In this document: in pieces, positions 33,025 to 52,902 of the stretch
Layout of the letters: the number at the start of each line of letters is the position of its first letter
Position numbering within the stretch: position 1 is the stretch's first letter
DNA from: a candidate division WOR-3 bacterium
Lineage (GTDB): Bacteria > Hydrothermota > Tepidihabitantia > SM23-42 > JAOAFX01
Assembly: GCA_037443805.1 (NCBI GenBank)
Contig: JBBINQ010000005.1
Coordinates: 9,607 to 73,606 of the forward strand
Direction: 5' to 3'
DNA length: 64,000 nucleotides
Made by a program: the position numbers and the translations under genes
Notes under the pieces: generated by a model
The model's database searches: none
Seen by the model: the letters and a program-made list of their open reading frames with translations, nothing else
Told to the model about the DNA's origin: nothing

Positions 33025-33597
33025 ATGTTTCTGTTAATACTTCTTACAGTATCGCCTCATGTCTTTCTTTCTCCTAATGATGCGATAGAAATTGAGATAT
33101 GGCACCAACCTACGCTCAGCGGTAAATATCTTGTAGATGCGGATACAAGTCTTAATATGCCACTGCTCGGTAAACTTGATATCAAAAACATTCCTGCTGA
33201 TTCATTAGAGAAGATGTTGATTGATGAATTTCACAAATATTATGGTGATGTATTCCTCACCGTGAATATTTATTATCAAATCAGTGTTTTTGGAGAAGTT
33301 AAGTCTCCAGGGAAATATTATTTGAAGAGCAGTGAAAATCTTGCCAACCTTCTGGCAATGGCAGGAGGTCCAACTGCAAATGGTAATTTGGGAAGGATTC
33401 GCATTTTAAACCTGGGTCAGGAAAGGACCGTGAATTTTGAAAAGATACTGAAGCAAGGTAAAAAGATTGAAGAATTAAATTTAAAGCCTGGTGATGTGGT
33501 TATTATTCCAAGAAGATTTATGCCAGCATTACAGGAATGGTCAGTGCTATTCACTATTGGCACTTTGATTATGCAGATTGTGTATTACACGAAATGA
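33025..33597 (+). CDS. wza: Short polysaccharide export protein (Poly_export + SLBB)
   Basis: LSPNDAIEI, MPLLGKL, ISVFGEVKSPGKY, AMAGGPT, LKPGDVVIIP, C-terminal amphipathic helix; no lipobox Cys. Confidence 0.75.
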   Translation: MFLLILLTVSPHVFLSPNDAIEIEIWHQPTLSGKYLVDADTSLNMPLLGKLDIKNIPADSLEKMLIDEFHKYYGDVFLTVNIYYQISVFGEVKSPGKYYLKSSENLANLLAMAGGPTANGNLGRIRILNLGQERTVNFEKILKQGKKIEELNLKPGDVVIIPRRFMPALQEWSVLFTIGTLIMQIVYYTK

Positions 33598-37690: not shown

Positions 37691-38323
37691 ATGGAACAGT
37701 TGAAACAAGGACTTGATGAACTAAAAATAGATTACTCAGATACTATTCTTGAGAAATTTCGTCTTTACTTAGATGCTCTTTTTACTTTTAAAGATAGACT
37801 GCATCTAATTTCACATAAAGATTACACACGTATCAGTGTAAAACATTTTCTTCCTTCTTTAACTGCATTGAAATTTATTGCTAACGAAAAAAAAACCTGT
37901 GATATTGGTGCGGGTGCAGGCTTTCCTTCTGTGCCTTTAAAGATTTTTAAACCCGCGCTTGAACTTACTCTATTTGAATCGGTTAAAAAAAAGGCAGAAT
38001 TTTTAAAATATTTAATTGACAGGCTGGCACTGGATAAAGTTTATGTCGTAAATTGCCGTGCAGAAAATTATGGTAATAACCATTTTGAAATAGTTTTCAT
38101 TCGTGCGGCAGGTAAAATTAAAAAACTGGCACGAACAGTAAATAATCTACTGATACCAGGTGGCAGGGCAATATTTTATAAGTCTCCAGCGATAGAGGCA
38201 GAATTAAATGAGGCAAAAAGGGAGATTGAAAAATACAATTTTGTAGTTTCAATTGAAAGAACTTTGACACCGGTCGTCTATGAACCATTAACTTTGGTGA
38301 TGTTGCAAAAACAAAAAAATTGA
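37691..38323 (+). CDS. rsmG: 16S rRNA m7G527 methyltransferase
   Basis: KHFLPSL, CDIGAGAGFPSVPL, ESVKKKAEFL, RAE, IRA; start placed at ATG 37691. Confidence 0.88.
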   Translation: MEQLKQGLDELKIDYSDTILEKFRLYLDALFTFKDRLHLISHKDYTRISVKHFLPSLTALKFIANEKKTCDIGAGAGFPSVPLKIFKPALELTLFESVKKKAEFLKYLIDRLALDKVYVVNCRAENYGNNHFEIVFIRAAGKIKKLARTVNNLLIPGGRAIFYKSPAIEAELNEAKREIEKYNFVVSIERTLTPVVYEPLTLVMLQKQKN

Positions 38324-39093
38324 TTATGCTTTCTATTATTATTATAAATTTCCGTATGGCAGAAAAACTATATCGTTGTATTGAAAGTATTATCAATACC
38401 CAGGATATGCATAAAATAGAAATAATCGTGGTCAATAAATTATCATCCGACAATGCGCATCATATTGTTAAAACAAAATATCCTCATATAAAGGTGATTG
38501 AATCCAGAAAATTTGGTATTGCGTATATGCGCAATTTGGGTATAAAAGAGGCGTGTGGTGATTATCTGCTATTCCTTGATGCGGATACAATTCTCTTACA
38601 GAATTTAAATCCAGCAATAAAATTTTTACAAGAGCATCCTGAAGCAGGTGGATTGGGTATAAAACTTATTGGTGATGACCATAAATTGCAATACTCTGCC
38701 CGCACTTTTTACGATTTCAAGACCATTATATGGAGACGCACACCACTCAATGTATTATTTCCCAATAGTTCTATAATTAGAAAACATCTTATGATGGATT
38801 GGGCGCACGATAGACCCCTTGTTGTGGACTGGGTGCAGGGTGCTTTTTTATTGATAAAAAGAGCGGCATTGGAACAGATAGGAACCTTTGATGAATTCAG
38901 TCCGTTTGGTTTTGAGGATGTTGCCTGGTGTTATCGTGCAAGTAAAAAAGGCTGGAAGATTTATTACTTTCCGTATATTACTGTAATACATGAATACCAG
39001 CGGAGCAGTGCTTCAGTATTTTCAATACGTGCATTGTACCATTTCTGGGCATTTTTGAGATTCTGTCTCAAATATGGATTTTTCTCAAAATGA
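38320..39093 (+). CDS. GT2 family glycosyltransferase
   Basis: LSIIIIN, NLGI, LLFLDADT (DxD), WVQGAFLLI, GFEDVAWC. Confidence 0.88.
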   Translation: MIMLSIIIINFRMAEKLYRCIESIINTQDMHKIEIIVVNKLSSDNAHHIVKTKYPHIKVIESRKFGIAYMRNLGIKEACGDYLLFLDADTILLQNLNPAIKFLQEHPEAGGLGIKLIGDDHKLQYSARTFYDFKTIIWRRTPLNVLFPNSSIIRKHLMMDWAHDRPLVVDWVQGAFLLIKRAALEQIGTFDEFSPFGFEDVAWCYRASKKGWKIYYFPYITVIHEYQRSSASVFSIRALYHFWAFLRFCLKYGFFSK

Positions 39094-40535
39094 ATGTATA
39101 TTTTTTAATACCACCATCAGGTAATAAGAAACTTGTTCCGGAAAGGGTCTTTGGTTGTAGCTATGGTCTGTATCCAATCCCGAATATTTTTATCCTGACA
39201 TTTGCCAGCATATTAAGAGATGCAGGTCATCAGGTTGAAATCATTGATGCACCGATTATGCAAATGGGCTTAAAAAAATTTTATAATTATCTATCAACCA
39301 GGACCGATTGCTGCTTTATATTTTACAGTGTTAATCTCTCAACCGCGAATGATAATAATAGTGCGAGAATACTTAGAAGCCAGGCTCCTGAAGCGCCGAT
39401 AATCTTCTGTGGCCCTGCGCCAACCTATCAGCCAGAAAGATTCATTTTTGATAAAAAGACTTTTGTTGCACGGGGTGAGGCAGATTGGACGCTTCGGGAA
39501 CTGGTTTCCTATCTTGCCGGGAACTCTCAGAATTCTTTGGATGCGATTAAGGGTATTTCTTATTTTCGTAAAGGTATAGTCATTGATAATCCAATGCGGG
39601 AATTGATAAAGGATTTGGATGAACTTCCATTCCCGGCACGGGATTTGCTCGCGCGCGATAAATACTACAATCCTAAATTAAAAGAACGCCCATTTACCGC
39701 AATGTTAACTTCTCGTGGTTGTCCATATCAATGTTCTTTCTGCGTTCCCTGTTCCCTCAACTTTGCAAGGAAGATAGAATTTCAGAAGTGTTATGGAACC
39801 GATAAAATTCCTCCAGTAGCATTTGCATCGCCGGCTCGGGTTATCTCAGAATTTGAATTACTCAAAAAACAAGGATACAGAACAGTGAGCATTATTGATG
39901 ATGAATTTTTGTTGAAACCGGAAAGAGTAATGGAAATTTGTAATGGGATAAAAAAACTGGGTATAAAATGGGGCTGCCTGGCAAGGGCAGACCACCTGAA
40001 TAATGAAGACCTCATTCAAACGATGGCTGAGGCAGGCTGCCAGTATATAGATATTGGTGTAGAATCATTCAATCAAAGGATTCTTGATGATGTAAAAAAG
40101 AAACTTGATGTATCTGTTATCCCCAGGGCAGTGCAATTATTAAAAAAACATAGGATTGAGCCAAAACTGAATATCCTTGTCGCTGCATCGCCTCTGGAAA
40201 CAGAACAGACAATAAAAGAGACAATAAACAGAGCATTTTCATTGAAGCCAGGGCTCATAATGTTAAATATCTGCACGCCTTTTCCCGGGACTGAACTTTA
40301 TAATCAAGCATTAAAAAACCATTGGTTTGTGGAGAAAGACTATTATCCAGCCGATGTTCAAAAGGAATCAGTCATTCAGTATCCCCATTTAAAGAAAGAA
40401 ACAATAGAAAAGATTGTGGCCCAGGCAAACAGAAAATTTTTTTCCCAGCCATATTTTATCCTTGCTCACTTAAAATTGGGTTTGAATTTTAAAAATATGG
40501 TTAATGCCCTGAAAAGTCTTTTAAAAAAATTTTAA
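39090..40535 (+). CDS. Cobalamin-binding-domain radical SAM protein
   Basis: B12-binding N-terminus (VEIIDA, CGPAPT, RGEAD), TSRGCPYQCSFC, IIDDEF, IGVES, PFPGTEL. Confidence 0.88.
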   Translation: MNVYFLIPPSGNKKLVPERVFGCSYGLYPIPNIFILTFASILRDAGHQVEIIDAPIMQMGLKKFYNYLSTRTDCCFIFYSVNLSTANDNNSARILRSQAPEAPIIFCGPAPTYQPERFIFDKKTFVARGEADWTLRELVSYLAGNSQNSLDAIKGISYFRKGIVIDNPMRELIKDLDELPFPARDLLARDKYYNPKLKERPFTAMLTSRGCPYQCSFCVPCSLNFARKIEFQKCYGTDKIPPVAFASPARVISEFELLKKQGYRTVSIIDDEFLLKPERVMEICNGIKKLGIKWGCLARADHLNNEDLIQTMAEAGCQYIDIGVESFNQRILDDVKKKLDVSVIPRAVQLLKKHRIEPKLNILVAASPLETEQTIKETINRAFSLKPGLIMLNICTPFPGTELYNQALKNHWFVEKDYYPADVQKESVIQYPHLKKETIEKIVAQANRKFFSQPYFILAHLKLGLNFKNMVNALKSLLKKF

Positions 40536-40545
40536 GATTTGCATC

Positions 40546-40573
40546 TTGACATTGTAATTATTTTAGATAAAAT
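40546..40573 (+). promoter_or_regulatory. Promoter for DUF6754 operon (TTGACA-N16-TAAAAT), probably leaderless
   Basis: ATG 40580 lies 6 nt downstream; no SD. Confidence 0.65.
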
Positions 40574-40579
40574 TATAAA

Positions 40580-41662
40580 ATGTTTTTATTACTCTTCATT
40601 ATTAATATATATGCGATAGATTTACGGGCATTTGACACACCAAATGATGATGGTTCAGGTATTACTATTAATTGGCAAACTTACCAGAATTATCAAACCT
40701 TTGCTATCTACAGAAGCACTGAACCATCGGGCATTTTTGAAAAGATTGGTGAAGTGGAGGGTTCAGAAAATAGATTCCTGGATACAAATATTAAAACAGG
40801 ACAGGAATATTATTATAAATTAAATGCAAGGCAGGACACGCTTATAGATTCTTCCCGGGTGGTTGGACCAATAAAGTCTCAGGTGCAGTATTTTAATACT
40901 GCACGCCTTCCTATGGCAATCTGCATAATTATACTTTTTGCTGCCATTCTTTTTTATATCAGTCAGGCGAAAAAAAGGGGAAGATTGTTTATCAGAAAGA
41001 TTCCTGCACTCAATGCAGTTGAAGAGGCGATTGGCAGGGCAACAGAGATGGGCAAGCCCGTGCTTTATGTTCCGGGCATAATGGATATTGACGACCCTCA
41101 GACCATTGCCTCAATGAGTATCCTTTCAAGGGTTGCAGAAAAGACTGCAGAATATGGCACACCGCTCTATGTTCCAACGAGTCGCTCAATGGCTATGACC
41201 ATGGCGCAACAGGTGGTCAAAGAGGCAGCAACCAGGGTAGGCCGTCCTGACTGGTATAATATTGATAATATCCGATATATTACGGATGACCAGTTTGCCT
41301 ATGTATCTGCAGTTGATGGTATTATGGTGCGGGAAAAACCAGCGACGAATCTTTATTTAGGAACATTTTATGCAGAGTCATTAATTCTTGCGGAAACCGG
41401 TCATTCTACAGGTGCAATTCAGATTGCAGGCACTGCAATGCCTGACCAGTTGCCATTCTTTGTTGCAGCGTGTGATTATACACTTTTAGGTGAAGAACTA
41501 TATGCAGCAAGTGCCTATCTCTCACAAGAACCAGTCCAGTTAGGCTCACTAAAAGGCCAGGACCTCGGCAAGTTGATCTTTATTGGTGTGATCATTATTG
41601 GTGTGCTATGCCAGATTTTTTCCTATCAGTTTTTCATTAACCTTTTTAATACGATAGAATGA
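40580..41662 (+). CDS. FN3 + DUF6754-domain membrane protein
   Basis: Signal-like N-terminus, FN3 (DTPNDDGSGITINW...YYYKL), TM, then GRATEMGKPV, QIAGT, FFVAACDYTLLGEELYAASAYLS, C-terminal TM. DUF name from recall. Confidence 0.72.
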   Translation: MFLLLFIINIYAIDLRAFDTPNDDGSGITINWQTYQNYQTFAIYRSTEPSGIFEKIGEVEGSENRFLDTNIKTGQEYYYKLNARQDTLIDSSRVVGPIKSQVQYFNTARLPMAICIIILFAAILFYISQAKKRGRLFIRKIPALNAVEEAIGRATEMGKPVLYVPGIMDIDDPQTIASMSILSRVAEKTAEYGTPLYVPTSRSMAMTMAQQVVKEAATRVGRPDWYNIDNIRYITDDQFAYVSAVDGIMVREKPATNLYLGTFYAESLILAETGHSTGAIQIAGTAMPDQLPFFVAACDYTLLGEELYAASAYLSQEPVQLGSLKGQDLGKLIFIGVIIIGVLCQIFSYQFFINLFNTIE

Positions 41663-42282
41663 AGACGATAATACCTTTAATAATTGTTTTTGCATGTGGA
41701 TTTTATATGTTAATTACATTTTTTATTCCAGCACGATTTGCCCAAGCCAGTTCTCAAACACTCCAGAATTGGTATCTGGGTGTTATAGCATTTTTTGTAT
41801 TTATTGGTATATTTAATCTTATTAGAATCAATGTGGATAAAATTCAGCGGCGTTTAAGAGATTGGCAATACAGTTTTATTTTATTGTTTTTTTTGGGAGT
41901 GATGTTAGGAGCAGGATTTATTGGTGGTAGAGATTCACGGATATTTTTATATTTCTTTGAAAATTTTCAGGTGCCGCTGGGCGCCACTATGTTTTCTCTC
42001 TTGGCATTCTTTGTTGCCTCGGCGTCATTCCGTGCATTCCGTGCGAAAACACCAGAGGCGACATTGTTGTTGATCGCGGCAGTGGTCGTGATGATTGGCA
42101 GGATCCCTATTGGTTATTTAATATGGCACGGTTTTCCTGACCTGGTAGAATGGATTATGCAGGTTCCGAATACTGCAGCAAAGCGTGGCATTCTCTTCGG
42201 TATTGATTTAGGGCTGATCTCTATGGCATTGCGCGTGCTCCTGGGTATTGAAAGAAGTTATATGGGAGGAGCCCGTGAATAA
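41659..42282 (+). CDS. Polytopic membrane protein (about 6 TM), subunit of DUF6754 cluster
   Basis: ATMFSLLAFFVASASFRAFRA, PNTAAKRGILFG, RVLLGIER; ATGA overlap with the upstream gene. Confidence 0.75.
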   Translation: MKTIIPLIIVFACGFYMLITFFIPARFAQASSQTLQNWYLGVIAFFVFIGIFNLIRINVDKIQRRLRDWQYSFILLFFLGVMLGAGFIGGRDSRIFLYFFENFQVPLGATMFSLLAFFVASASFRAFRAKTPEATLLLIAAVVVMIGRIPIGYLIWHGFPDLVEWIMQVPNTAAKRGILFGIDLGLISMALRVLLGIERSYMGGARE

Positions 42283-42303
42283 AATATTTATCAGGGTTAT
42301 TAT

Positions 42304-43125
42304 ATGAATCTTATTGAACGCTTGAGCAAATTAGATAGAAGGATTATTTTTCTGCTTGTCGCACTGGCAGTCATTATCCCGATGCTTGTGCCACTTAATC
42401 TACCTGTGGATATTACAAAACCAGTAAAAAATGTCTATCAAAAGATTGAATCTCTACCTGAAGGTTCAGTAGTGCTCATTTCTACAGATTATGACCCGGG
42501 TAGTGAGGCAGAACTCTATCCAGCGACCGAGGCAGTGATTGAACATTGTTTTCACAAGAATTTAAAGATATATATGATGGGTCTATGGCCAGCTGGCAGT
42601 GAATTGGGTAATGTGGCTTTAAATCAGATTGCCCAAATATATAATAAAAAATATGGTGAGGATTATATAAATGTGGGTTATCGGCCGGGTGGTGCAATTA
42701 TGCTCTTGAGTTTAGGCCGTAATTTTGCTGATGTAATAAAGGTTGATTATCAGGGTGTCCCTATTGATTCATTCCCCTTAGGAAAGAAAGTAAAATCGGC
42801 AAAAGATCTGGGCCTGGTTATGACCTTTTCTGCTGGAGACCCTGGTATATTACACTGGATAATCTATTTCCATGCCCGCTATGGTATTCCAATCTGCGGT
42901 GCGACCACTGCAATTATGGCACCGCAACAGTATGCATATTTAAGTTCTGGACAGCTGGTTGGACTTTTAGGTGGACTAAAGGGTGCAGCAGAATATGAGA
43001 CCCTTGTGAATAAAAAGGGCAGGGGGTTAAGGGGAATGGATGCACAGTCTATTGTTCATCTTCTGCTTGTCGGATTCATTGTTCTTGGTAATGTGATACT
43101 GGTCTATCAGCGGAGGAAAAAATGA
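42304..43125 (+). CDS. Membrane-anchored alpha/beta-domain protein (DUF6754-related)
   Basis: N- and C-terminal TMs, DYDPGSEAELYP, YGEDYINVGY, GQLVGLLGGLKGAAEYE. Confidence 0.7.
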   Translation: MNLIERLSKLDRRIIFLLVALAVIIPMLVPLNLPVDITKPVKNVYQKIESLPEGSVVLISTDYDPGSEAELYPATEAVIEHCFHKNLKIYMMGLWPAGSELGNVALNQIAQIYNKKYGEDYINVGYRPGGAIMLLSLGRNFADVIKVDYQGVPIDSFPLGKKVKSAKDLGLVMTFSAGDPGILHWIIYFHARYGIPICGATTAIMAPQQYAYLSSGQLVGLLGGLKGAAEYETLVNKKGRGLRGMDAQSIVHLLLVGFIVLGNVILVYQRRKK

Positions 43126-43739
43126 TAAATACCTTAGGAATATGGATTGCCGCAGTCTTAACCCTTGCCATATACTCATTCTTGTATAAGGATAATCCAT
43201 TCTATAAAATTGCGGAAAATATCTTTGTTGGTGTCTCTGCTGGCTATTGGGCAGTTGTTCTATGGTTTGATTTTGCCTGGCCCAATTTATTTGAGCCTCT
43301 GTTCTACCGGGGCCAGTGGTATAATATCTTTCCTGTATTTATTGGACTTTTGATGTTTGCACCACTCATTCCCAAAATCTCCTGGATGATACGCATTCCC
43401 CTGACATTCACGATGGGCATTTCTATGGCTGTCTTTATAACTCAGATTGTTCAGGGTGACATCTTTCCCCAGTTGCAGGCAACATTCTTGCCTCTAAAAG
43501 ATGTCCCTGCTTTTACTATATTTTCCAATCTTTTGATTATCATTGGTGTAATCTTCACGCTTATCTATTTCTATTTTTCTAAAGAGCACAAAGGACCATT
43601 AGGTATTTTTGCCAGGATTGGTATCTGGTTTATGATGGTTTCATTCGGTGCTTCGTTCGGATACACAATTATGGCTCGTGTATCACTATTTATCGGTAGG
43701 GTATATTTTTTGCTACATAACTGGTTGGGAGTGATATAG
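43122..43739 (+). CDS. Polytopic membrane protein (about 6 TM), subunit of DUF6754 cluster
   Basis: SFLYKDNPFYKIAENIFVGVSAGY, YFYFSKEHKG, FGASFGYTIMAR. Confidence 0.75.
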   Translation: MINTLGIWIAAVLTLAIYSFLYKDNPFYKIAENIFVGVSAGYWAVVLWFDFAWPNLFEPLFYRGQWYNIFPVFIGLLMFAPLIPKISWMIRIPLTFTMGISMAVFITQIVQGDIFPQLQATFLPLKDVPAFTIFSNLLIIIGVIFTLIYFYFSKEHKGPLGIFARIGIWFMMVSFGASFGYTIMARVSLFIGRVYFLLHNWLGVI

Positions 43740-44576
43740 ATGGCTGATTTTGAGATTAATTTAAAGGAATTTAATCTTTCTGATATACTACAATTTCTTA
43801 CTTACTTGAAAAAAAGCGGTGTGGTCAGAGTAAGCGGTGAATTGAATGGTGAGATATATCTAAGAGATGGCAATATTGTGCATGCAACCGATGGCACAGA
43901 AAAAGGATTTGAATCATTGCTCAATCTTTCCCTGGTCAATCTTGAACGGGCAGTTTTTGAAGCAGGAATAAAGGCGACCGAACACACAATTTCTGAGGAT
44001 GTGGGAAAATTGACCGAAACTATTGAAAGGCGAAGGATTGAATTTGAGCAGATTAAGGAACATTTGCCACCACGCGATGCAGTGCTTGCAAAATCAACAA
44101 AAGAATTACCGAGTGCGGTTGCCCTGCGCCGAACTGACTGGCAGGTTCTGGCAATGGTTGATGGCAAAAGGACCATTAATGAAATTATTGCCCAGTCAAA
44201 ATTGGGTGGATATGAAACCATAAAGACCATTATCTGGCTAAAAGAACAAGGTTTGATTTACGACCCGAGGGAAGCAGAGAGATTAATGGCTGGTTTGATT
44301 CATTATTTAAATGCATTTTTTAAAATTTTTGGCAAACATGGTTTGAATTGGTTCAGAAGATGGTGCGAGCAAAATTCGCAAGAACAAGCATTGAGCTCGG
44401 CACTGAAGGTAAATGAAGATACCTTTGAGATTGTTGTGCAGAATCCAATGTCCCAGGAGCAGATTGATGAGTTCAGAAAAAAGTTTGATAAGTTTATTGA
44501 TACAGAAGGTCCTCTGGTCTATGGAAAATTACTGTTCAAGAAAAAACTTGAAGAGTTCCGTGCCGAATTGAAATAG
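43740..44576 (+). CDS. DUF4388 (PATAN-like) + winged-helix domain protein
   Basis: FEINLKEFNLSDILQFL..LKKSGVVRV..GEIYLRDGNIVHA; wHTH-like DWQVLAMVDGKRTINEII...LKEQGLI; ATG directly follows the upstream TAG. Confidence 0.78.
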   Translation: MADFEINLKEFNLSDILQFLTYLKKSGVVRVSGELNGEIYLRDGNIVHATDGTEKGFESLLNLSLVNLERAVFEAGIKATEHTISEDVGKLTETIERRRIEFEQIKEHLPPRDAVLAKSTKELPSAVALRRTDWQVLAMVDGKRTINEIIAQSKLGGYETIKTIIWLKEQGLIYDPREAERLMAGLIHYLNAFFKIFGKHGLNWFRRWCEQNSQEQALSSALKVNEDTFEIVVQNPMSQEQIDEFRKKFDKFIDTEGPLVYGKLLFKKKLEEFRAELK

Positions 44577-44589
44577 AAAGGAGTGGTGA

Positions 44590-45375
44590 ATGGAGATATT
44601 GGATAAGATACCAGGCGTAATAAATTATGCTGTGGTCAATGCCGAGGATGGCTCAATTGAGAAGATAAAAGGTTCGTCAACTTCACCGATTGGTGACCTC
44701 ACTGCATTCTTCTCCTCGGCAGCAGAGGTGATAAAAAATACGCTGGGACTGGGTGAAATAAATTTTGTATCACTCTGTTACGGCGCAAATCGTTTGATAA
44801 TATTTATTCATAATAATAAGTATCTTGGTATTGAAGTAGAGCGAGAGGCAAAACCCTCTGAGGTGATTGAAAAGATAAAGGCTCAGTTGTCTTTGATTGG
44901 AGAAGAGAAAAAAGAGGTGGTGATAGAAGAGAAAAAGGAAGAAGTAGAAGAAAAGGTCGTGGAAAAAGAAGAGCGACCAGAGGTTCAGGTTGTTGAGGAG
45001 AAAGTAGTTGAAGAGGTTAAACCAGCCCCGGCTCCAGTCAAAGAAGAGATTAAATTACCAAGGAGCATCGGTTCAAAATTGATGCAGATAAATCTGTTGA
45101 TTGATGAATTTGGAAGCGGTGGTAAAAAGGCACACTGGCTTGATATTCTAAATCAAGGTCTGGGCGTAATTGCCACAGATATTCTGCCCATTGTTGGTAT
45201 CATTGGTGAAAAAATGGAATTCAAACAGAATCCACCTCTGGAAAAAGAAGATGACATTGTTCAGATACTGAGAACACTGATTGATTTTCTGGTCAAAAAA
45301 GCAGTGGAAGAAATAGGTTCTTCTCAGGCACGGGTAAAAGTTCAGGCAGTCATTGAAAAGATGAAACAATTGTGA
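44590..45375 (+). CDS. Roadblock/LC7-like domain + E/K/V-rich linker + C-terminal helical domain
   Basis: About 100-aa alpha-beta domain (KIPGVINYAVVNAEDG...LIIFIHNNKYLGIEV), low-complexity linker EEKKEVVIEEKKEEVEEKVVEKEE. Confidence 0.6.
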   Translation: MEILDKIPGVINYAVVNAEDGSIEKIKGSSTSPIGDLTAFFSSAAEVIKNTLGLGEINFVSLCYGANRLIIFIHNNKYLGIEVEREAKPSEVIEKIKAQLSLIGEEKKEVVIEEKKEEVEEKVVEKEERPEVQVVEEKVVEEVKPAPAPVKEEIKLPRSIGSKLMQINLLIDEFGSGGKKAHWLDILNQGLGVIATDILPIVGIIGEKMEFKQNPPLEKEDDIVQILRTLIDFLVKKAVEEIGSSQARVKVQAVIEKMKQL

Positions 45376-45379
45376 GGGG

Positions 45380-45976
45380 GTGAATGCTATGAATGAAGAA
45401 ATATTGAATAAGATTGAGGAGCGTGGTCTGGGTCTACCTTTTGTTGTAAAAAAAGATGGCGAGACCATTACTTCGCATAGTGGAGAAACAAATAAAGCAA
45501 AGTTTTCTCAAACTGGCACTGTTCTATTTGAATCTATTGGCGCAGTGGGTGGAATAAAGATTGATGTCATTGAAATTGTAGGAAGTAATCAGAGCCTGCT
45601 CTGCGATATTTCTGAAGAAGAGTTGATCGGGCACATCTATGCGACATCCCAGATGTCCATACTTGATAATATCTGGAATGCGATAAAAGATATAAGGGCA
45701 AAACAAAAAGAAGAGGTTGTTGAAGTAGAGAAACCCAAAGAGAAATTTGCACCTGAATTTCTTGAGCAATTGAAGGCGATTGTCCAGGATTATCTTGGTG
45801 ATTTTACAGAAAGGGTTTATCAGAATCAACTCAAAGCACAGCGCATAAAGATTGAAGAACTTTATGAAGAGGATCTGAGAAGGTTCATCTTTGCACTTGG
45901 CAAGGCAGCGGGAATGATTATTGGTCCGACAAAAGGTAAGGATTTGACCAACAAACTTCTTGCAAAATTAAAATGA
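45380..45976 (+). CDS. Roadblock/LC7-like domain + helical C-terminal domain
   Basis: Beta-hairpin/helix pattern FVVKKDGETIT...VLFESIGAVG...IEIVGSNQSLL; start could be 45389. Confidence 0.5.
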   Translation: MNAMNEEILNKIEERGLGLPFVVKKDGETITSHSGETNKAKFSQTGTVLFESIGAVGGIKIDVIEIVGSNQSLLCDISEEELIGHIYATSQMSILDNIWNAIKDIRAKQKEEVVEVEKPKEKFAPEFLEQLKAIVQDYLGDFTERVYQNQLKAQRIKIEELYEEDLRRFIFALGKAAGMIIGPTKGKDLTNKLLAKLK

Positions 45977-46074
45977 TAAGATATAATCAGTATCAGAGAT
46001 GGAAATTTGAAATCTGGAATCTCATTAGAATTTCTATAACCGGATTTGGAACTTAAAAAAATATAGGAGGTTCT

Positions 46075-46443
46075 ATGTCCTTAATATTATTTTCTGCACC
46101 ATTCGGGATAGAAGAGTCAACCTATCAGGCACTGGCAATAATCCCGAACTATGTGCTGGTAGTTGGTGCAATTTTATTATGGCTCGCCTTCATTTTTTTG
46201 GGAATCATTGCGCGCCGTTATGAAATTGTGCTCGGTGAAAAGACCAACTGGCAGTTTATGGTTATTGCACCCACAGGTATTTTGCTCTTTGCTTTGATCC
46301 AATTGATATTTTGCGGAATAGGCGGCAAGATGATGTTGCCCAAAGGCGGTATAAATTATCTTGCATATGGCTTATTCTTTCTCTCAGGAATTCTCTCGGT
46401 TGTGGCAAACTTAAAATTTTATGGAGTCACTAAGGGAAAATAG
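46075..46443 (+). CDS. Small 3-TM membrane protein
   Basis: SD AGGAGG; three hydrophobic helices; LGIIARRYEIVLGEKTNWQF. Confidence 0.72.
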   Translation: MSLILFSAPFGIEESTYQALAIIPNYVLVVGAILLWLAFIFLGIIARRYEIVLGEKTNWQFMVIAPTGILLFALIQLIFCGIGGKMMLPKGGINYLAYGLFFLSGILSVVANLKFYGVTKGK

Positions 46444-46452
46444 GGAGGTTTT

Positions 46453-46803
46453 ATGAGGGCAGATTTAATTGCGGAAATTATTTTTATTGTGGCAATATTG
46501 CTTGCCATTATTTCGCTTATCATCTTCGGCCTTATCTTGAAGAGGCTCCTCAATTTAATAGGTGGAAAGGGCATCTGGGTCTTTCCTTTGATTGGCTGTC
46601 TATTTCTGGTCGCAATGGCGGTATTCCATTTATATCGTATTATCTTCTACTTTCCGCTCTTGAGCGTTGCTGGTCCAGGCGACCTTTTTGATTTAATCAT
46701 TGGTTCTCTTGCCCTTGCTCGGTATGAAAGTTTTCTCTTTCTTGGTGCCGGTCTTTTCCCATTGATTGGTGGGATACTTTATTATAGTGCAAGTTCAAAA
46801 TGA
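46453..46803 (+). CDS. Small 3-TM membrane protein, probable paralog of 46075-46443
   Basis: SD GGGAGG; FGLILKRLLNLIGGKGIWVF aligns by eye with the neighbour. Confidence 0.72.
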   Translation: MRADLIAEIIFIVAILLAIISLIIFGLILKRLLNLIGGKGIWVFPLIGCLFLVAMAVFHLYRIIFYFPLLSVAGPGDLFDLIIGSLALARYESFLFLGAGLFPLIGGILYYSASSK

Positions 46804-46806
46804 CCC

Positions 46807-46834
46807 TTGACATTTTCCATAAAATAATTATAAT
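46807..46834 (+). promoter_or_regulatory. exbB operon promoter (TTGACA-N16-TATAAT)
   Basis: Both hexamers perfect; SD AAAGGAGG before ATG 46862. Confidence 0.8.
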
Positions 46835-46861
46835 GTAGGGTATAGAAAGGAGGCTTATTCT

Positions 46862-47485
46862 ATGATCAGGGAATTTTCTATTGGCGGTGGTGTGATGTGG
46901 TTGTTATTGATTTGTATCATTTTAGCATTGGGCATTGTTCTTGAGCGTCTTTTTTCTCTTTTAATAAAAATAAGACTGAATCCAAAGAGTTTTTTGGAGA
47001 AACTTATTTCAACGATTGATGCCCAGGGTCTTGATGCAGGTATAGCTTTATGTGACCAGACAGCTTCACCCGCAGCAAAGATTGCCAAAGTGATATTAGA
47101 AAAAGGAGATAAAGGCAAGGATGCAATGGAAGAGGTGGCGGCGCGTGCTGCCGCAATTGAACTCGCTTTTTTAGATAGAGGAATGGCGCTACTGGCGGGT
47201 TTGACCACGGTTGCCCCATTTCTTGGATTCTTAGGAACAGTAACAGGTATGATTCGTGCATTTGCAGCAATTGCTATGGCAGGCGAGGTTGAGCCTACAA
47301 TTGTTGCCAGTGGTATTTCTGAGGCATTGATCACAACCAAATGGGGTTTGATCATTGCAACTCCACTCGCTATTCTCCATATTCTCTTTACGGGTAAAGT
47401 GGATGGGTATACAAAAGATATGGAAGAAGTTGCTGCGGGTTTGATTGATTATATGATTGAGCATTATCCCAAAAGGAAAAAATAG
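46862..47485 (+). CDS. exbB: MotA/TolQ/ExbB proton channel protein
   Basis: APFLGFLGTVTGMIRAF, GISEALITTKWGLIIA. Confidence 0.92.
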   Translation: MIREFSIGGGVMWLLLICIILALGIVLERLFSLLIKIRLNPKSFLEKLISTIDAQGLDAGIALCDQTASPAAKIAKVILEKGDKGKDAMEEVAARAAAIELAFLDRGMALLAGLTTVAPFLGFLGTVTGMIRAFAAIAMAGEVEPTIVASGISEALITTKWGLIIATPLAILHILFTGKVDGYTKDMEEVAAGLIDYMIEHYPKRKK

Positions 47486-47950
47486 ATGGAATTGAGGCAA
47501 AAGAAAAAATATCAAGCCGCTATTCCTACTGCCTCAATGGGTGATATTGCATTTTTGATCATCATTTTCTTTATGACCACAACTGTTTTTACCAGGGAAA
47601 AAGGTATCAAGATGCTTCTACCTGAAAAAACCGAGACTGAGACCAAGGTCAAACCAGAGAATGTTGTTTCAATTCTGATAAATCCTGAAGGTGCATTAAA
47701 ACTGAGGGCAACGGGTTATGATGGAATTGACATATCTCCCCAGCAATATAGTGAAGTGCGAAGAATCGTTGAAGAAAAGCTCTTAGAAAGGGATACTTTA
47801 CTCGTAGTCTCCTTGAAAACGAGTAAAGATGCCCAATACCAGGCAATGATAGGAGTGCTTGACCAGATAAAGCTCGCAAAAGTGGTCACCCAGGATGGCA
47901 GAGAATTAAAGGCAAATAAAATAAGTCTTATCCCAACGAGTGAGGAATAA
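47486..47950 (+). CDS. exbD: ExbD/TolR family protein
   Basis: IPTASMGDIAFLIIIFFMTTTVF with conserved Asp. Confidence 0.9.
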   Translation: MELRQKKKYQAAIPTASMGDIAFLIIIFFMTTTVFTREKGIKMLLPEKTETETKVKPENVVSILINPEGALKLRATGYDGIDISPQQYSEVRRIVEEKLLERDTLLVVSLKTSKDAQYQAMIGVLDQIKLAKVVTQDGRELKANKISLIPTSEE

Positions 47951-48366
47951 TGCGTAAAAGTATTATCAGAAGGTTTACCAGAACACCTGAAATTCCTACT
48001 GCCTCAACTGCTGATGTTGCCTTTCTTTTAATACTTTTCTTTATGGTCACTACGGTGTTCAGGGCAACTTCCCTTAATCTAAAGATTGTGCTGCCCAAGG
48101 CAAAGTCTACAGAAAGGATTCTTATCCGCAGGAATATTACCCATATCTGGGTTGATAATAATGGTCGTGTATTTATTGATGATAGCCTTGTTCCCAAGGA
48201 ACGGGTCAGTTCAAAGATATCGCCCAAGGTTGCGGAAAATCCTGAGCTGGTTACAATCTTAAATATCCATAGCGATATTGAATATGGCACAGTAGATGTG
48301 ATACTTGACCAATTAAAAGAGTCCCGGGCATTTAAGATTACATTTGCTACAGAATTTGGAGGATGA
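47950..48366 (+). CDS. exbD: Second ExbD/TolR family protein
   Basis: IPTASTADVAFLLILFFMVTTVF; LPKA. Confidence 0.9.
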   Translation: MRKSIIRRFTRTPEIPTASTADVAFLLILFFMVTTVFRATSLNLKIVLPKAKSTERILIRRNITHIWVDNNGRVFIDDSLVPKERVSSKISPKVAENPELVTILNIHSDIEYGTVDVILDQLKESRAFKITFATEFGG

Positions 48367-48367
48367 G

Positions 48368-48976
48368 ATGCGTGACCATAAATTGATGTATGGGGTATAT
48401 TTCCGCACAGGAATGTTTATCGGTATAATTTTGTTGATTCTACTATTTCTGTTCTTGCCCTATGCTGAGGTAGAACCTTATAAATTGAGAAAAGAGGTTG
48501 TGACAATGGTGGAAGAGATTTCTGCGGAGATTGAAAAGTATGAAGAACCTCCACCAGTGGAGAGGCCAAAGGTTGCGGTTGCTGCTGCTCCATCTGAAGT
48601 TACTGAGGAGGCGGTTGAGACCATTGCCGCAACTGAATTTCGGGAGGATATCATTAGAACCCAGCCCACGGGTCCGGAAATAGAGATTGTTCCTTATTTT
48701 AAGGTAGAGGTAAAACCACAACCTATCTCAATGCCTGCACCAGAATGGCCCGAACTTGTAAAAAGAGCAGGCATTGAAGGTAGTCTACAAGTGAAGTTTT
48801 TGGTGAATGTTGATGGCACTGTTATGGATGTCCAGATTGTGAAATCCAGCGGTAATCAGTTACTTGATGAGGCAGCAGTGGCGAGTGTATGGAAATATAG
48901 ATTTACTCCGGCAAAACAGCGTGATAAACTCGTAAGGGTATGGGTCTTTAGAAAAATAGAATTTAAATTTAAGTAA
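48368..48976 (+). CDS. tonB: Energy transducer TonB
   Basis: TM anchor, Pro-rich linker EEPPPVERP, TonB_C GIEGSLQVKFLVNVDG...LDEAAVASVWKYRFTPA; start ATG 48368. Confidence 0.9.
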   Translation: MRDHKLMYGVYFRTGMFIGIILLILLFLFLPYAEVEPYKLRKEVVTMVEEISAEIEKYEEPPPVERPKVAVAAAPSEVTEEAVETIAATEFREDIIRTQPTGPEIEIVPYFKVEVKPQPISMPAPEWPELVKRAGIEGSLQVKFLVNVDGTVMDVQIVKSSGNQLLDEAAVASVWKYRFTPAKQRDKLVRVWVFRKIEFKFK

Positions 48977-48982
48977 TTATCC

Positions 48983-49010
48983 TTGACAATTTTTATTTTT
49001 TTAATATAAT
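48983..49010 (+). promoter_or_regulatory. Promoter of lipoprotein-TBDR-PorV operon (TTGACA-N16-TATAAT)
   Basis: Both hexamers perfect; about 75-nt leader with two SD-like motifs. Confidence 0.78.
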
Positions 49011-49087
49011 ATTTATATATAGAAAGGGGGTGGGACATTAAAAAAAATCGCTTAAAACTAAATAACATAAAAGAAAAGGAGGATTAA

Positions 49088-50122
49088 ATGATAAGGCTGA
49101 AATGGCTAAGTCTATTAGCAATTTTAACATTGGTGTTTGTAAGTTGTGGTAATGAACCACCAGAGGAGTTCTATAATGGAACACCACAGGACGATACATT
49201 GATTAATGCATTGCTTGATGCGAATTCTGAATATCTTATAACCGATGATTTATTTTTAGATACGTATAGCCGGATTGATTCGTTTGTAGTAAGCTTCCCA
49301 GTAGCAGATTCATATTTTAAAACAGAATCAATTCTGGTTAAACAACATCTGGATAGTTTGAGTGAAAAAATCGCATCAAGTGCTCGTTTTAAGGACCTCT
49401 GGTATACCAAAGATACTACCTGCACAGTGTATCTCTTTGATACATTTAACATAATACAGGAGGTCCATTATGACCGATTATACAAAGGTTATTATTTCTG
49501 GCAGGGCGATACATCCAAGAAACTGGATACAGTGATCGTTGAAGCCACTTCAGGTTATTATTCTTATGATACAATAACTGTAGAGGGGCTTCGCCATATT
49601 TATGTTGAACCAGTAAAAGAAAGGGTTTGGGATGAGGAACTTCAGGATTCGGTCTGGAAGATAAAAGAGCCAAGAGAATGGATTTTGAAGAGAATTTCCT
49701 ATGGAAACTATGGATTGCCAAATCGGGGCGCAGGAATTCCTGAGATCGATTACGCTATAGTAACTTCTAATAATACCTCAAAAGTTGATACCATCTGGGC
49801 ATCAAATACAGATACTCTCTATCAACATCATGCAATGAACCGTTTCTGCGCAATAGATTCGCTGTTAGAATATGATGCGGGTGATACTTTGACAATTTCA
49901 CTGACCCTTTCCGGAACAATTACAAGTGACCTCTGCTCATTCTTTGCCATTCAGGATGGTAAGAAAGTTCAACTTATTGGTGGTTCAGGTAAGATTGCCA
50001 TTACTGGTTCTGGCGTGAAAAATCTTGTATTTGTGGCGATTGTCAACGATGGATTATGCTATGTAAAGCCTGCCAGCCCATTACTTGCAAGATTCTGGCT
50101 TATACCCATAAGGGTTAATTGA
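49088..50122 (+). CDS. Hypothetical lipoprotein (344 aa)
   Basis: Lipobox VFVSC; SD AAGGAGG; beta-rich, many DT/DS motifs. Confidence 0.75.
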   Translation: MIRLKWLSLLAILTLVFVSCGNEPPEEFYNGTPQDDTLINALLDANSEYLITDDLFLDTYSRIDSFVVSFPVADSYFKTESILVKQHLDSLSEKIASSARFKDLWYTKDTTCTVYLFDTFNIIQEVHYDRLYKGYYFWQGDTSKKLDTVIVEATSGYYSYDTITVEGLRHIYVEPVKERVWDEELQDSVWKIKEPREWILKRISYGNYGLPNRGAGIPEIDYAIVTSNNTSKVDTIWASNTDTLYQHHAMNRFCAIDSLLEYDAGDTLTISLTLSGTITSDLCSFFAIQDGKKVQLIGGSGKIAITGSGVKNLVFVAIVNDGLCYVKPASPLLARFWLIPIRVN

Positions 50123-50133
50123 GGAGGTGTATA

Positions 50134-52902
50134 ATGAAAAAATTATTGGCGTTAATCCTTACCACTGCATTTTTGTTCGGTGCAGAGTATGGTAAAATTA
50201 CTGGTAAGGTGAGGGACGCTGAAACCGGTGAACCATTGATCGGTGCTGATGTGATTGTAGAAGGAACAGAACTTGGTGCCGCAACAGATGAAAAGGGTGA
50301 TTATGTGATTCTCTATGTTCCTGCAGGAACCTATGTGGTTACCGCATCATATTTAGGTTATGACCCATATACTTATACCCAGGTGATTGTCAATGCTGAC
50401 CAGACTACAAATCTCAATTTCAGATTAAAACCTACAGTAATTGAAGTAGAAAAGGTTACGGTTGTTGCTGAAAAACCACCAATTGTTGCCTCCCAGGTCC
50501 AGAGTGGACATTCAGTTACATCGCAAGATATATCCCGTCTACCCGTGACCACAATCAACCAGGTGGTTACCCTCCAGGCAGGCGTATCCACATCAAATCT
50601 TGGTACACATATTCGTGGTGGCAGGCCCGAAGAGGTAACTTATTATGTGGATGGTATTATGACCAAGGTTCCACACACAGGTGCGCAATCAACCCAGATA
50701 AATGCCTCAGCAGTAGAAGAGGTAACAGTTGTCAGTGGTGGTTTTGATGCAGAATATGGTGAAGCACTTTCAGGAATTATCAATGTTGTGACCAAAGAGG
50801 GTGGAACAAAACCATCAGGTAGCTTTAGGTACTTGACCGATGAGGTATTTGCAATGGATGCGCTCAAAGACAAACTGAATACTGGTTATAATTTCTATGA
50901 CCTATCACTGGGTGGTCCTTTACCTGCTTTGTCCAGATTGAAATATTTCCTCTCTGGTGAATTAACATTGACAGATGCTTATGCAGAGGCATTATATAAG
51001 GTTCCTTCACCAAGGAATACATATCGTGCTCAGGGCAGATTCTCCTATACAATGCCCAATAATAAAGGTAAGATTACCTTGAGTGGATTTAATTCAAGGG
51101 ACCAGTATGTGACCTGGTCATCAGGAAATTTAAAATACTTCCAGAATAGACCAATGAGCAGGACCAAGAACTATATTCTCTCTTCCACATTCAATTATAT
51201 GCTCACGGCAAAGACCCTTTTGACAGTTAAGGGCGGTATGACACACTATGATAGAGTATATGGCAACCGTGATTATGCCTGGGAAGATTCTGCGGGTCAT
51301 GGGTGGTATGACGATTATCGTTTCAAAGCAGAACATTGCATAAAGTATCTTACTAAAGATTTACTTCCGCCCAAGGATGTTATCGTGGATAGTGTAATGC
51401 AATACCATACTGAGTATACAAACCGTGATGTGGATGCATTACGCAACAATCCCTATGGCGTTGAAGGTATGTATTATACCTATGGCGACTATCGTGTATG
51501 GAGATACTGGCAGAATGATGATATCCAGGCAAGGTTTGACCTTTCCCATGCAGTGGGTAAGGTTCATGAATTCAAAACTGGTGTTGACTATGTAGGATAC
51601 AACCTGAAATATTATGATAATAACCTTCCCTGGGTCACGAATCCATTCTGGGATTATTATGAGCGACAGCCCTATAAGGTTGCAGCGTATGTTCAGGACA
51701 AAATGGATTTTGAAGGTTTGATTGCACGGCTTGGACTGAGATTTGATTATTTTGACCCCAAGAGTTGTACCTACAAAGTTCCAAATGACCCAAGGAATGA
51801 TACCCTTGCATATGCAGACAAGAGTTATCGTGTTTCTCCGCGTATTGGTTTTTCTCTACCAGTTACTGAACGGATGAAATTCCGTTTCAATTATGGACAT
51901 TATTTCCAGTTACCCGCACTTGATGATATGTTCAGCACAACTGATACAGCAGTGATAAGGCTTGCACTCTCTCGCGGTAATACAATTATAGGAAATATCT
52001 TTATGAAGCCAGAAAAGACTGTGCAGTATGAGGTCGGTATTGAAAATCAGTTCACACAGGATGTAGTAATGGGATTTACTGCGTATTTCAAAGATGTGTA
52101 TGACCTGTCTCAGATTCGTGAAGTTATTGCATTGCCAATGCCATACTTCCAGTTCTTTAATGTTGACTACGGAAATATCAAAGGATTTGAAATAAGGTTA
52201 GATAAGACAATGTCCAATATGTGGGCATTTGGTCTCAGTTATACGCTCCAGTTTGCCAAAGGGACTGCCTCTTACGCAGGTGAGTTCTATTATGACTTCT
52301 ATTATGGTGGTACTGACCCGATTACTGGATTACCATTACAGCCACCAGTAATTGATTACTGGCTTGATTTTGATGAACGGAATATCGTGAATGCGAACCT
52401 GGACCTCCAACTGCCTTCTGATTTTGTTTTCATCCCATTGCAGGATTTAAACTCATCATTTGTATTCTCATACCATTCAGGCCATCCATACACGCCCCTT
52501 GACCTGAGAGGAAATAAGACAGGTGATGAGAATTCTGCAAGGATGCCTGGTTGGTGGAATGTTGATATGAATGCAAGTAGATTGATAAAGATTGGTCCAG
52601 TAAAATTCACCTTAACCGCACTCGTTAATAATCTCTTTAATTCAAGACAAATAGTAGAGGTATATCAGACATCTGGTGACCCTGATGACCATGGTGACCC
52701 AGAACCTACCCTGACTCAGTTTGGAACCCTGACCATTGGTTCAAGTCGCTATTCGCCACAGGCTGATTATAATCATGATGGTATTATGACACCACCTGAG
52801 CAGAAAAAAGCTTATATTGCAGCAAGAACCGATTATTATCTTGACCCAACAAATTATAATGGTCCATTCAGGGTTCAGATCGGTATTGGTTTAGGATTTT
52901 AG
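50134..52902 (+). CDS. TonB-dependent outer-membrane receptor with N-terminal carboxypeptidase-regulatory-like domain
   Basis: GKITGKVRDAETGEPLIGADV, plug IRGGRPEEVTYYVDG, GGFDAEYGEALSGIINVVTKEG, MKPEKTVQYEVG, C-terminal QIGIGLGF; start ATG 50134. Confidence 0.9.
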   Translation: MKKLLALILTTAFLFGAEYGKITGKVRDAETGEPLIGADVIVEGTELGAATDEKGDYVILYVPAGTYVVTASYLGYDPYTYTQVIVNADQTTNLNFRLKPTVIEVEKVTVVAEKPPIVASQVQSGHSVTSQDISRLPVTTINQVVTLQAGVSTSNLGTHIRGGRPEEVTYYVDGIMTKVPHTGAQSTQINASAVEEVTVVSGGFDAEYGEALSGIINVVTKEGGTKPSGSFRYLTDEVFAMDALKDKLNTGYNFYDLSLGGPLPALSRLKYFLSGELTLTDAYAEALYKVPSPRNTYRAQGRFSYTMPNNKGKITLSGFNSRDQYVTWSSGNLKYFQNRPMSRTKNYILSSTFNYMLTAKTLLTVKGGMTHYDRVYGNRDYAWEDSAGHGWYDDYRFKAEHCIKYLTKDLLPPKDVIVDSVMQYHTEYTNRDVDALRNNPYGVEGMYYTYGDYRVWRYWQNDDIQARFDLSHAVGKVHEFKTGVDYVGYNLKYYDNNLPWVTNPFWDYYERQPYKVAAYVQDKMDFEGLIARLGLRFDYFDPKSCTYKVPNDPRNDTLAYADKSYRVSPRIGFSLPVTERMKFRFNYGHYFQLPALDDMFSTTDTAVIRLALSRGNTIIGNIFMKPEKTVQYEVGIENQFTQDVVMGFTAYFKDVYDLSQIREVIALPMPYFQFFNVDYGNIKGFEIRLDKTMSNMWAFGLSYTLQFAKGTASYAGEFYYDFYYGGTDPITGLPLQPPVIDYWLDFDERNIVNANLDLQLPSDFVFIPLQDLNSSFVFSYHSGHPYTPLDLRGNKTGDENSARMPGWWNVDMNASRLIKIGPVKFTLTALVNNLFNSRQIVEVYQTSGDPDDHGDPEPTLTQFGTLTIGSSRYSPQADYNHDGIMTPPEQKKAYIAARTDYYLDPTNYNGPFRVQIGIGLGF

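Follow-up and report, generated by a model that had tools for sequence, protein, structure and literature searches.

What do two roadblock-like proteins do in an operon that encodes no GTPase? The question is raised by a 64,000-nucleotide stretch of DNA from a candidate division WOR-3 bacterium (assembly GCA_037443805.1, contig JBBINQ010000005.1, positions 9,607 to 73,606 of the forward strand; the whole stretch is called the window below). In it, a gene for a PATAN (DUF4388) protein and two genes for proteins with a roadblock/LC7 fold follow directly on four genes for membrane proteins, the first of which belongs to the DUF6754 family. We find that these three genes form, together with two small downstream genes, a module whose order is conserved between distant lineages and which has no linked GTPase gene. 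Our preferred reading, held tentatively and with slightly less than even confidence, is that they encode a self-contained, membrane-associated roadblock/PATAN adaptor complex, without a dedicated GTPase, that probably acts on envelope machinery. The genes are named as follows:

40580–41662, + strand: g1, DUF6754 protein
41659–42282, + strand: g2, membrane protein of about 6 transmembrane (TM) helices, retained alongside g1 in 53 of 55 loci
42304–43125, + strand: g3, bitopic protein (TM prediction)
43122–43739, + strand: g4, membrane protein of 5–6 TM helices (TM prediction)
43740–44576, + strand: g5, PATAN/DUF4388 protein
44590–45375, + strand: g6, roadblock-fold protein with a C-terminal domain
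45389–45976, + strand: g7, roadblock-fold protein with a C-terminal domain
46075–46443, + strand: g8, small membrane protein of 3 TM helices (TM prediction)
46453–46803, + strand: g9, small membrane protein of 3 TM helices (TM prediction)

An original prediction, made from the sequence alone, had assigned roadblock/LC7 folds to g6 and g7 and proposed a structural check. At the sequence level, full-length g6 and g7 had no Pfam match, and their isolated domains stayed below the gathering score of Robl_LC7 (PF03259), with no match even at E≤10. AlphaFold2 (AF2) models were then taken as evidence, built on alignments of 41 and 43 sequences and reaching predicted local distance difference test (pLDDT) scores of 77.6 and 84.5, respectively. 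In both models, residues 1 to about 110 are ordered alpha-beta-beta-alpha-beta-beta-beta-alpha, which is the order of the roadblock fold. Compared with the PDB by Foldseek, g6 gave as top matches LAMTOR/Ragulator chains, the Asgard Roadblock protein 7yh1 and the Streptomyces protein 3kye (E 2e-5 to 5e-4), and the top 50 of its 62 matches at E≤1e-3 were all roadblock-fold chains or roadblock-domain-containing proteins. The same was true of all 45 matches of g7, headed by MglB of Myxococcus xanthus and Thermus thermophilus and by dynein LC7 (E 4.5e-5 upward). Moreover, the g6 orthologue of locus L073 falls just short of the Robl_LC7 cutoff (E 7e-4, 19.7 bits against 23), and the g6 profile reaches a genuine Robl_LC7 protein (P0391, 36.6 bits on Pfam) with an E of 2.6e-4 in 1.84 billion proteins. 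The fold order, the Foldseek matches, the near-threshold score and the link to P0391 together confirm that both proteins carry roadblock folds. The g6 family is small, with 34 cluster representatives at E≤1e-3 in the same 1.84 billion proteins, and is only weakly similar to the g7 family by hhalign. In public records, homologues of both are labelled hypothetical or 'roadblock/LC7 domain-containing'. The domains of g5, g6 and g7 are:

43740–44039, + strand: g5 residues 1–100, PATAN (DUF4388/PatA_N) domain (Pfam PF14332)
44082–44273, + strand: g5 residues ~115–178, possible PqqD-like/winged-helix region, motif RRTDWQxLAxVDGKRT (weak profile matches, conservation)
44274–44576, + strand: g5 residues 179–278, C-terminal domain (CTD) homologous to that of g6 (hidden Markov model (HMM), hhalign)
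44590–44904, + strand: g6 residues 1–105, roadblock/LC7-fold domain with invariant D20-G21 (AF2, Foldseek, alignment)
44905–45021, + strand: g6 residues 106–144, disordered E/K/V-rich linker (pLDDT <50, alignment gaps)
45052–45375, + strand: g6 residues 155–261, CTD, helix-helix-beta hairpin-helix-helix, pLDDT >90 (AF2, conservation)
45389–45721, + strand: g7 residues 1–111, roadblock-fold domain, best structural matches MglB (AF2, Foldseek)
45746–45976, + strand: g7 residues 120–195, three-helix CTD, motif LGKAAGMIIGPxKG (AF2, conservation)

Both g6 and g7 are thus two-domain proteins, consisting of a roadblock domain, a linker of variable length and a conserved CTD; the linker of g7 is short. 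The E/K/V linker that the original prediction had noticed in g6 is present; its length ranges from ~0 to 90 aa among homologues, and its DNA contains no tandem repeat. The CTDs had been overlooked. They are conserved as well as, or better than, the roadblock domains, and they are the parts still detectable across distant lineages. An HMM of the g6 CTD, run against 12,794 open reading frames (ORFs), matched PATAN proteins of three distant lineages at their C-termini (E 3.4e-7, 7.3e-6 and 1.7e-3); the reciprocal search with the g5 CTD matched g6 (E 7.5e-5 and 3.3e-3), and hhalign aligned the two domains over 96 columns (E 0.017). On the strength of these reciprocal matches and of the alignment, we conclude from sequence comparison that the CTDs of g5 and g6 are homologous.

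The DUF4388/PatA_N identity proposed for g5 was upheld by Pfam (PF14332, 44.6 bits against a cutoff of 25). The PATAN domain occupies the N-terminal ~100 aa and is not split by an insertion; in the L073 orthologue, residues 5–101 cover positions 2–120 of the 122 of the model, and orthologues carry the PatA_N annotation. The winged helix-turn-helix proposed for the same protein fared less well. Residues ~115–178 are the best-conserved stretch of g5, and sub-threshold matches to the PqqD type (TIGR03859) were obtained in 10 of 12 family members (best E 0.0018), along with a match to HTH_47 at E 0.03; these weak matches make a winged helix in g5 plausible. A REC (Response_reg) domain, as found in PatA-type response regulators, gave no match in g5, and the g5 profile found nothing when searched against PDB sequences. 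Two other candidates were set aside: the NCBIfam 'slr1658 superfamily' at the C-terminus, which matched only 2 of 12 members and far under its cutoff (the slr1658 literature was uninformative for g5), and the cyclic di-GMP-binding MshEN domain on the CTD, which at E 0.15 was treated as noise.

The unit does not stop at g7, where the original prediction had ended it. It extends to g8 and g9, which travel with g5–g7 and have three TM helices each; g9 is a probable paralogue of g8, judging by an hhalign alignment of 97 columns (E 0.009).

In the ORF list, all genes between 40580 and 48976 are on the + strand, and the gaps that separate them are very short. The tight coupling of g5–g7 to the last gene of the DUF6754 operon, as first described, is exact: the end of g4 reads GTG ATA TAG, with the TAG at 43737–43739, and the ATG of g5 at 43740 abuts it with a gap of 0 nt. 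The start of g2 overlaps the stop of g1 by 4 nt, and the gaps g5–g6 and g6–g7 measure 13 nt each and contain Shine-Dalgarno sites, good ones for both g6 and g7. We place the start of g7 at ATG 45389 rather than at GTG 45380, the first in the ORF list, because a Shine-Dalgarno sequence (GGGGGTG) lies just upstream and because almost all homologues are 190–250 aa long when counted from the same Met. A scan for sigma70-type promoters, covering 38–50 kb and reporting consensus matches only, placed its three best matches all in intergenic positions, one each upstream of g1, of exbB and of the gene at 49088:

40546–40573, + strand: sigma70-like promoter match, 11/12, just 5′ of g1, candidate start of a g1–g7 transcription unit
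45960–45987, + strand: weaker promoter-like match, 10/12, preceding g8 and assigned to the 98-nt g7–g8 gap
46807–46834, + strand: perfect TTGACA-16-TATAAT promoter match, 12/12, 5′ of exbB
48983–49010: sigma70-type promoter match, 12/12, preceding the gene at 49088

These matches suggest three transcription units, g1–g7, g8–g9 and exbB–tonB. The g7–g8 gap is 98 nt long in the window, versus only 1–34 nt in several relatives. The position of perfect or near-perfect TTGACA-16-TATAAT matches exactly in intergenic gaps also suggests that this WOR-3 organism uses classical sigma70 promoters. Rfam gave no match on 40000–49200, and the PADLOC anti-phage defence models gave 0 matches on g1–g9.

How far is this arrangement conserved? 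In WOR-3/Stahlbacteria, g1–g9 and exbB–tonB are found in unchanged order in all 12 genome loci and in the metagenome contig L083. The module itself recurs in about six further uncultured lineages, and the order g5-g6-g7-g8-g9 is shared by the window, the 12 WOR-3/Stahlbacteria loci, L083, L084, L088 and L091/L092. Outside WOR-3 the loci read:

L073: g1–g4, two tetratricopeptide repeat (TPR) proteins, LplA, g5–g7, locus end
L088: divergent g1..g4, LplA, g5–g9, TonB-dependent receptor, exbB–tonB
L084: LplA, g5–g9, NHL protein, receptor, exbB–tonB; no DUF6754 within 9 kb
L093/L094: g6–g9, exbB–tonB, receptor; no PATAN gene, no DUF6754
L091/L092: g5–g9 amid glycolytic and other housekeeping genes
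L090: g5–g7, then ruvB (upstream sequence covers ~1.1 kb only)

Counting WOR-3, the roadblock pair g6/g7 is the invariant core, being present in 7 of 7 lineage types. The PATAN gene follows with 6 of 7, g8/g9 with 5 of 6 evaluable types, the adjacent TonB operon with 4 of 6 evaluable types (WOR-3, L084, L088 and L093) and the DUF6754 core with 3 of 7. No DUF6754 gene was found within 5–9 kb upstream of the module in L084 and L093, nor in the 1.7–3.8 kb upstream of it in L091/L092. The link to the DUF6754 genes that the original prediction expected in relatives therefore stands for all WOR-3/Stahlbacteria loci (the 12 and L083), and elsewhere is looser (L073), involves a divergent core (L088) or was not seen. 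Likewise, the idea that the module is wired to this membrane complex agrees with the adjacency in WOR-3, but the commonest neighbour across lineages is ExbB-ExbD-ExbD-TonB, not DUF6754. In L093 (4902–5737) and L094, the ~0.8-kb gap upstream of g6 contains no PATAN gene. One WOR-3 locus departs from the pattern: in L082, the 'complete' bin77 chromosome (CP070664.1), the array begins at g3, ends after g8 and is flanked by HigB/helix-turn-helix toxin-antitoxin and ferredoxin genes. L083 encodes proteins identical to those of L082 and has the full array, a difference due to either misassembly or rearrangement.

The absence of a GTPase was examined by requiring the G1 motif GK[ST] and the G4 motif [NT][KQ]xD in one ORF; G3 was not required (MglA has TxxG, not DxxG). 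No ORF of the 64-kb window combines G1 and G4, in agreement with the earlier statement that neither the operon nor the window holds a GTPase gene, and the true P-loops of the window belong only to DnaX-like and SbcC-like proteins and a Wzc-like kinase. Nor was a small GTPase found within 5–10 kb in about 20 module loci from about 7 lineages; counting these loci and the window, the P-loops are those of DnaX-like, SbcC-like and Wzc-like proteins, ABC transporters and RuvB only. An MglA-family GTPase within about four genes of the roadblock genes is thus lacking in the window and in about 20 loci. An orphan roadblock gene is not rare per se, since 328 of 749 MglB homologues are orphans and 421 are coupled to MglA (PMC4316618). 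What is unusual here is an orphan pair with signature domains of its own, kept in a five-gene module.

The best surviving alternative is that the pair acts in trans, g6 and g7 being the GTPase-activating protein (GAP) and/or guanine nucleotide exchange factor for a distantly encoded MglA-family GTPase, with the PATAN protein as effector or localiser of a dispersed polarity module. The best structural matches of g7 are MglB chains in complex with MglA, and the invariant D20-G21 of g6 resembles the conserved Asp-Gly pair typical of MglB homologues (PMC4316618). Systems with one MglA and two MglB are known, and of 238 genomes that have MglB homologues, 200 encode MglA as well (PMC4316618); PATAN genes are often found near mglA/mglB (bioRxiv 10.1101/2021.06.11.447907). 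However, no GTPase gene lies within 5–10 kb at any of these loci, where synteny is otherwise strict, and the extra CTDs that define the g6/g7 family are absent from MglB. Furthermore, 390 of 449 MglA genes lie within four genes of their own MglB (PMC4316618), and an MglA in these genomes would therefore be expected to have an MglB of its own. We regard action in trans as possible, though rather doubtful. A literature search on WOR-3 and MglA found no paper.

Could g5–g7 instead be dedicated cytoplasmic parts, structural or regulatory, of the DUF6754 complex? The DUF6754 annotation of 40580–41662 is secure (Pfam PF20539, E 2e-118). The predicted layout of g1 is a signal/TM segment, a periplasmic FN3 domain, a TM helix, the cytoplasmic DUF6754 domain and a C-terminal TM helix. 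The FN3 domain has PDB profile matches to titin and Fn3; in a PDB sequence search with the DUF6754 profile this part alone matched, the DUF6754 domain itself being without a sequence relative in the PDB. A soluble domain of ~215 aa and N- and C-terminal TM helices make up g3. Paralogy between g1 and g3 and between g2 and g4 was considered and dropped as unsupported, TM segments alone being aligned. The family is large, with at least 8000 matches and at least 568 species genomes, in WOR-3, Zixibacteria, Latescibacteria, Coatesbacteria, Fermentibacteria/Aegiribacteria, Cloacimonadota, Ignavibacteria, Eisenbacteria and others. These hosts are candidate phyla related to the Fibrobacteres-Chlorobi-Bacteroidetes (FCB) group, and a locus sometimes holds two copies of the core. 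A literature search on DUF6754 found no paper.

Among the 80 loci most similar to the WOR-3 query, 55 DUF6754 loci had at least 8 kb of downstream sequence, and the fractions counted on them are biased by this choice. The genes g2–g4 are retained in 53 of the 55, and together with the PF20539 match of g1, their presence shows that the window encodes this complex. Several observations speak for g5–g7 as further subunits: the g4 stop and the g5 start abut at 43739/43740, a single promoter is predicted for g1–g7, the module adjoins the DUF6754 genes in every WOR-3 locus, and the module lies near a DUF6754 core in L073 and near a divergent one in L088. Yet compared with g2–g4, g5–g7 occur in only 11 of the 55 loci, which means that most DUF6754 operons are without the module, and conversely the module occurs without a DUF6754 gene in the upstream intervals given above for L084, L093 and L091/L092. 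A subunit role is accordingly improbable. Two further genes were noted around the DUF6754 core. A conserved 373-aa protein (L073 8683–9804) with weak RnfC_N and Biotin_lipoyl (barrel-sandwich hybrid) matches adjoins DUF6754 in many phyla; it was found in 26 of 81 loci and not in WOR-3. In L073, L084 and L088, the gene directly 5′ of that for the PATAN protein encodes LplA, a lipoate-protein ligase. The two may point to a partner of the lipoyl or biotinyl type.

On the downstream side, the window carries consecutive genes with MotA_ExbB, ExbD and TonB_C domains, that is, a TonB energiser:

46862–47485, + strand: exbB (Pfam)
47486–47950, + strand: exbD (Pfam)
47950–48366, + strand: exbD (Pfam)
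TTG 48344 or, more likely, ATG 48368 to 48976, + strand: tonB (Pfam)

The listed TTG start of tonB overlaps exbD by 23 nt, and the ATG, 2 nt past the exbD stop, is the likelier one. A putative lipoprotein and a TonB-dependent receptor are encoded at 50119–52902. An exbB operon lies downstream in 16 of the 55 DUF6754 loci, 6 of which are without g5–g7, and all 6 come from Fermentibacteria/Aegiribacteria. In these (L034, L019, L035, L037, L046 and L049), a DUF6754 core is found with a TonB-dependent receptor and exbB-exbD-exbD-tonB and no PATAN/roadblock module, which means that the DUF6754–TonB association is independent of the module. The repeated adjacency of the module to the TonB operon and TonB-dependent receptors, together with the winged-helix-like region of g5, could also be read as a signalling relay to gene expression, functionally analogous to the trans-envelope signalling of FecA-FecR-FecI, in which g8/g9 and the roadblock pair would hold g5 at the membrane and release it upon TonB-dependent transport. 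This we consider quite improbable: the signal in g5 resembles the peptide-binding PqqD/RRE type rather than a DNA-binding one and every match is sub-threshold, neither a sigma factor nor a DNA target was found, and L093 has kept the rest of the module without a PATAN gene. As for the 'conservon-like' module of the original prediction, a roadblock protein beside winged-helix-like and membrane proteins does recall CvnB, CvnC and CvnA, but the idea is scarcely credible, as three of the four defining parts fail (no HATPase_c or HisKA match for a CvnA-type kinase in g1–g9, no DUF742 match for CvnC in g5 or its middle region at E≤10, no P-loop GTPase for CvnD in motif scans of the window) and the PATAN domain and the CTDs are foreign to conservons.

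Other genes of the window lie further out. Upstream are genes for a polysaccharide export protein (Poly_export/SLBB) and a Wzc-like chain-length/tyrosine-kinase protein (33025–35912), a GT2 glycosyltransferase (38320–39093) and, immediately 5′ of g1, a B12-binding radical SAM enzyme (39090–40535). Right after the TonB-dependent receptor, a 986-aa ORF (52909–55869) has no Pfam match, and L088 and L093 have unannotated proteins of 855 and 801 aa in the equivalent position. Further on, 57049–59697 encodes an 882-aa LVIVD-repeat protein with a Peptidase_C39-like domain and a C-terminal sorting domain of the type IX secretion system (T9SS); on account of this sorting domain, the organism probably has such a system.

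We now return to the adaptor complex that we prefer. In it, the roadblock domains of g6 and g7 would pair as a heterodimer, like MP1/p14 and the LAMTOR pairs, the family-specific CTDs would tie the PATAN protein g5 to this dimer, and g8/g9 would dock the whole assembly at the inner membrane. The complex would then serve as an adaptor or switch that has no GTPase dedicated to it, the PATAN and winged-helix surfaces of g5 engaging adjacent envelope machinery. PATAN has been described as an output domain in its own right, with inner-membrane localisation and with the motor components PilB1 and PilC as binding partners (bioRxiv 10.1101/2021.06.11.447907). In WOR-3, candidate targets are the four-protein DUF6754 inner-membrane complex, in the same predicted transcription unit, and/or the proton-motive ExbB-ExbD2-TonB energiser just downstream. 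A more specific form of this idea, possible but hardly probable at present, is that g5–g9 make up a GTPase-independent inner-membrane switch or adaptor that controls the activity or placement of the TonB-ExbBD motor and, in WOR-3, of the DUF6754 complex.

Three observations weigh against the adaptor complex as described. The best structural match of g7 is MglB, a GAP, and g6 retains the MglB-typical Asp-Gly, which makes GTPase binding by g6/g7 possible. Clean HMMs of the g6 CTD or the g5 CTD do not reach the g7 CTD, and for this reason we do not claim one CTD common to the three proteins (an earlier match to the g7 CTD was discounted, the HMM being perhaps contaminated with g5 sequence). Finally, in two lineages (L091/L092 and L090) the module lies amid housekeeping genes, and it may therefore have a target other than the TonB system or DUF6754.

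To our knowledge, roadblock proteins are understood almost wholly as partners of small GTPases (MglB, CvnB, LAMTOR), and a literature search for DUF4388 together with roadblock found no paper. The module belongs to a known kind, the roadblock/PATAN regulatory modules. It would differ in being conserved with two roadblock members, a CTD shared with the PATAN protein, two tiny membrane proteins and no GTPase neighbour, and it would allow one to test cleanly whether roadblock modules of prokaryotes are able to work without a GTPase. If the specific form given above were true, it would be a prokaryotic 'Ragulator without Rags', part of an undescribed envelope machine of FCB-related candidate phyla. 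Its neighbours, a TonB energiser and a DUF6754 complex of hundreds of uncultured species, heighten the interest: through this adjacency, the module gives experimental access to two parts of the envelope biology of candidate phyla that are uncharacterised. Evidence that the module is independent of a GTPase and controls the TonB motor would raise the interest further.

Several known systems resemble the module in part. With Streptomyces conservons and mycobacterial Mfp it shares a roadblock protein encoded in an operon with membrane proteins. PatA-type PATAN proteins (cyanobacterial PixE, PixG and PatA, and Myxococcus SgnC) are like g5 in having a PATAN domain, which in g5 scores above the PF14332 threshold; at the inner membrane, PATAN acts as an output domain for protein interactions. 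Unlike them, g5 is without REC, having instead a PqqD-like winged helix and the CTD common to a roadblock protein, and its genomic partners are TonB and DUF6754, not type IV pilus genes. The MglB proteins of M. xanthus and T. thermophilus share the fold of the N-domains of g6 and g7 and provide the top structural match of g7; two roadblock genes side by side are also found in 1:2 MglA:MglB systems, as is a PATAN gene nearby. In contrast to MglB, no relative has an adjacent GTPase gene, g6 and g7 have an extra CTD after a variable linker and score, in the window, below the Pfam Robl_LC7 threshold, and the g6 family is small. Ragulator scaffolds the Rag GTPases at the lysosomal membrane, where it is anchored by the lipidated LAMTOR1. 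Its chains are the top structural matches of g6, and the concept is shared, two different roadblock proteins making up a scaffold that is anchored in the membrane next to a motor or transporter. At 14–18% identity, the resemblance does not go beyond the fold; no GTPase is seen for g6/g7, and anchoring by g8/g9 is a prediction. The Agl-Glt gliding machinery of Myxococcus, lastly, is built of a TolQR-like motor and the TonB-like GltG/J and is controlled by MglA/MglB. No Glt homologues were identified, and the genes downstream of the module resemble an ordinary FCB-type uptake set of exbB-exbD-exbD-tonB and receptor. What the two have in common is a roadblock-type regulator genetically associated with a proton-motive motor of the ExbB/ExbD/TonB type.

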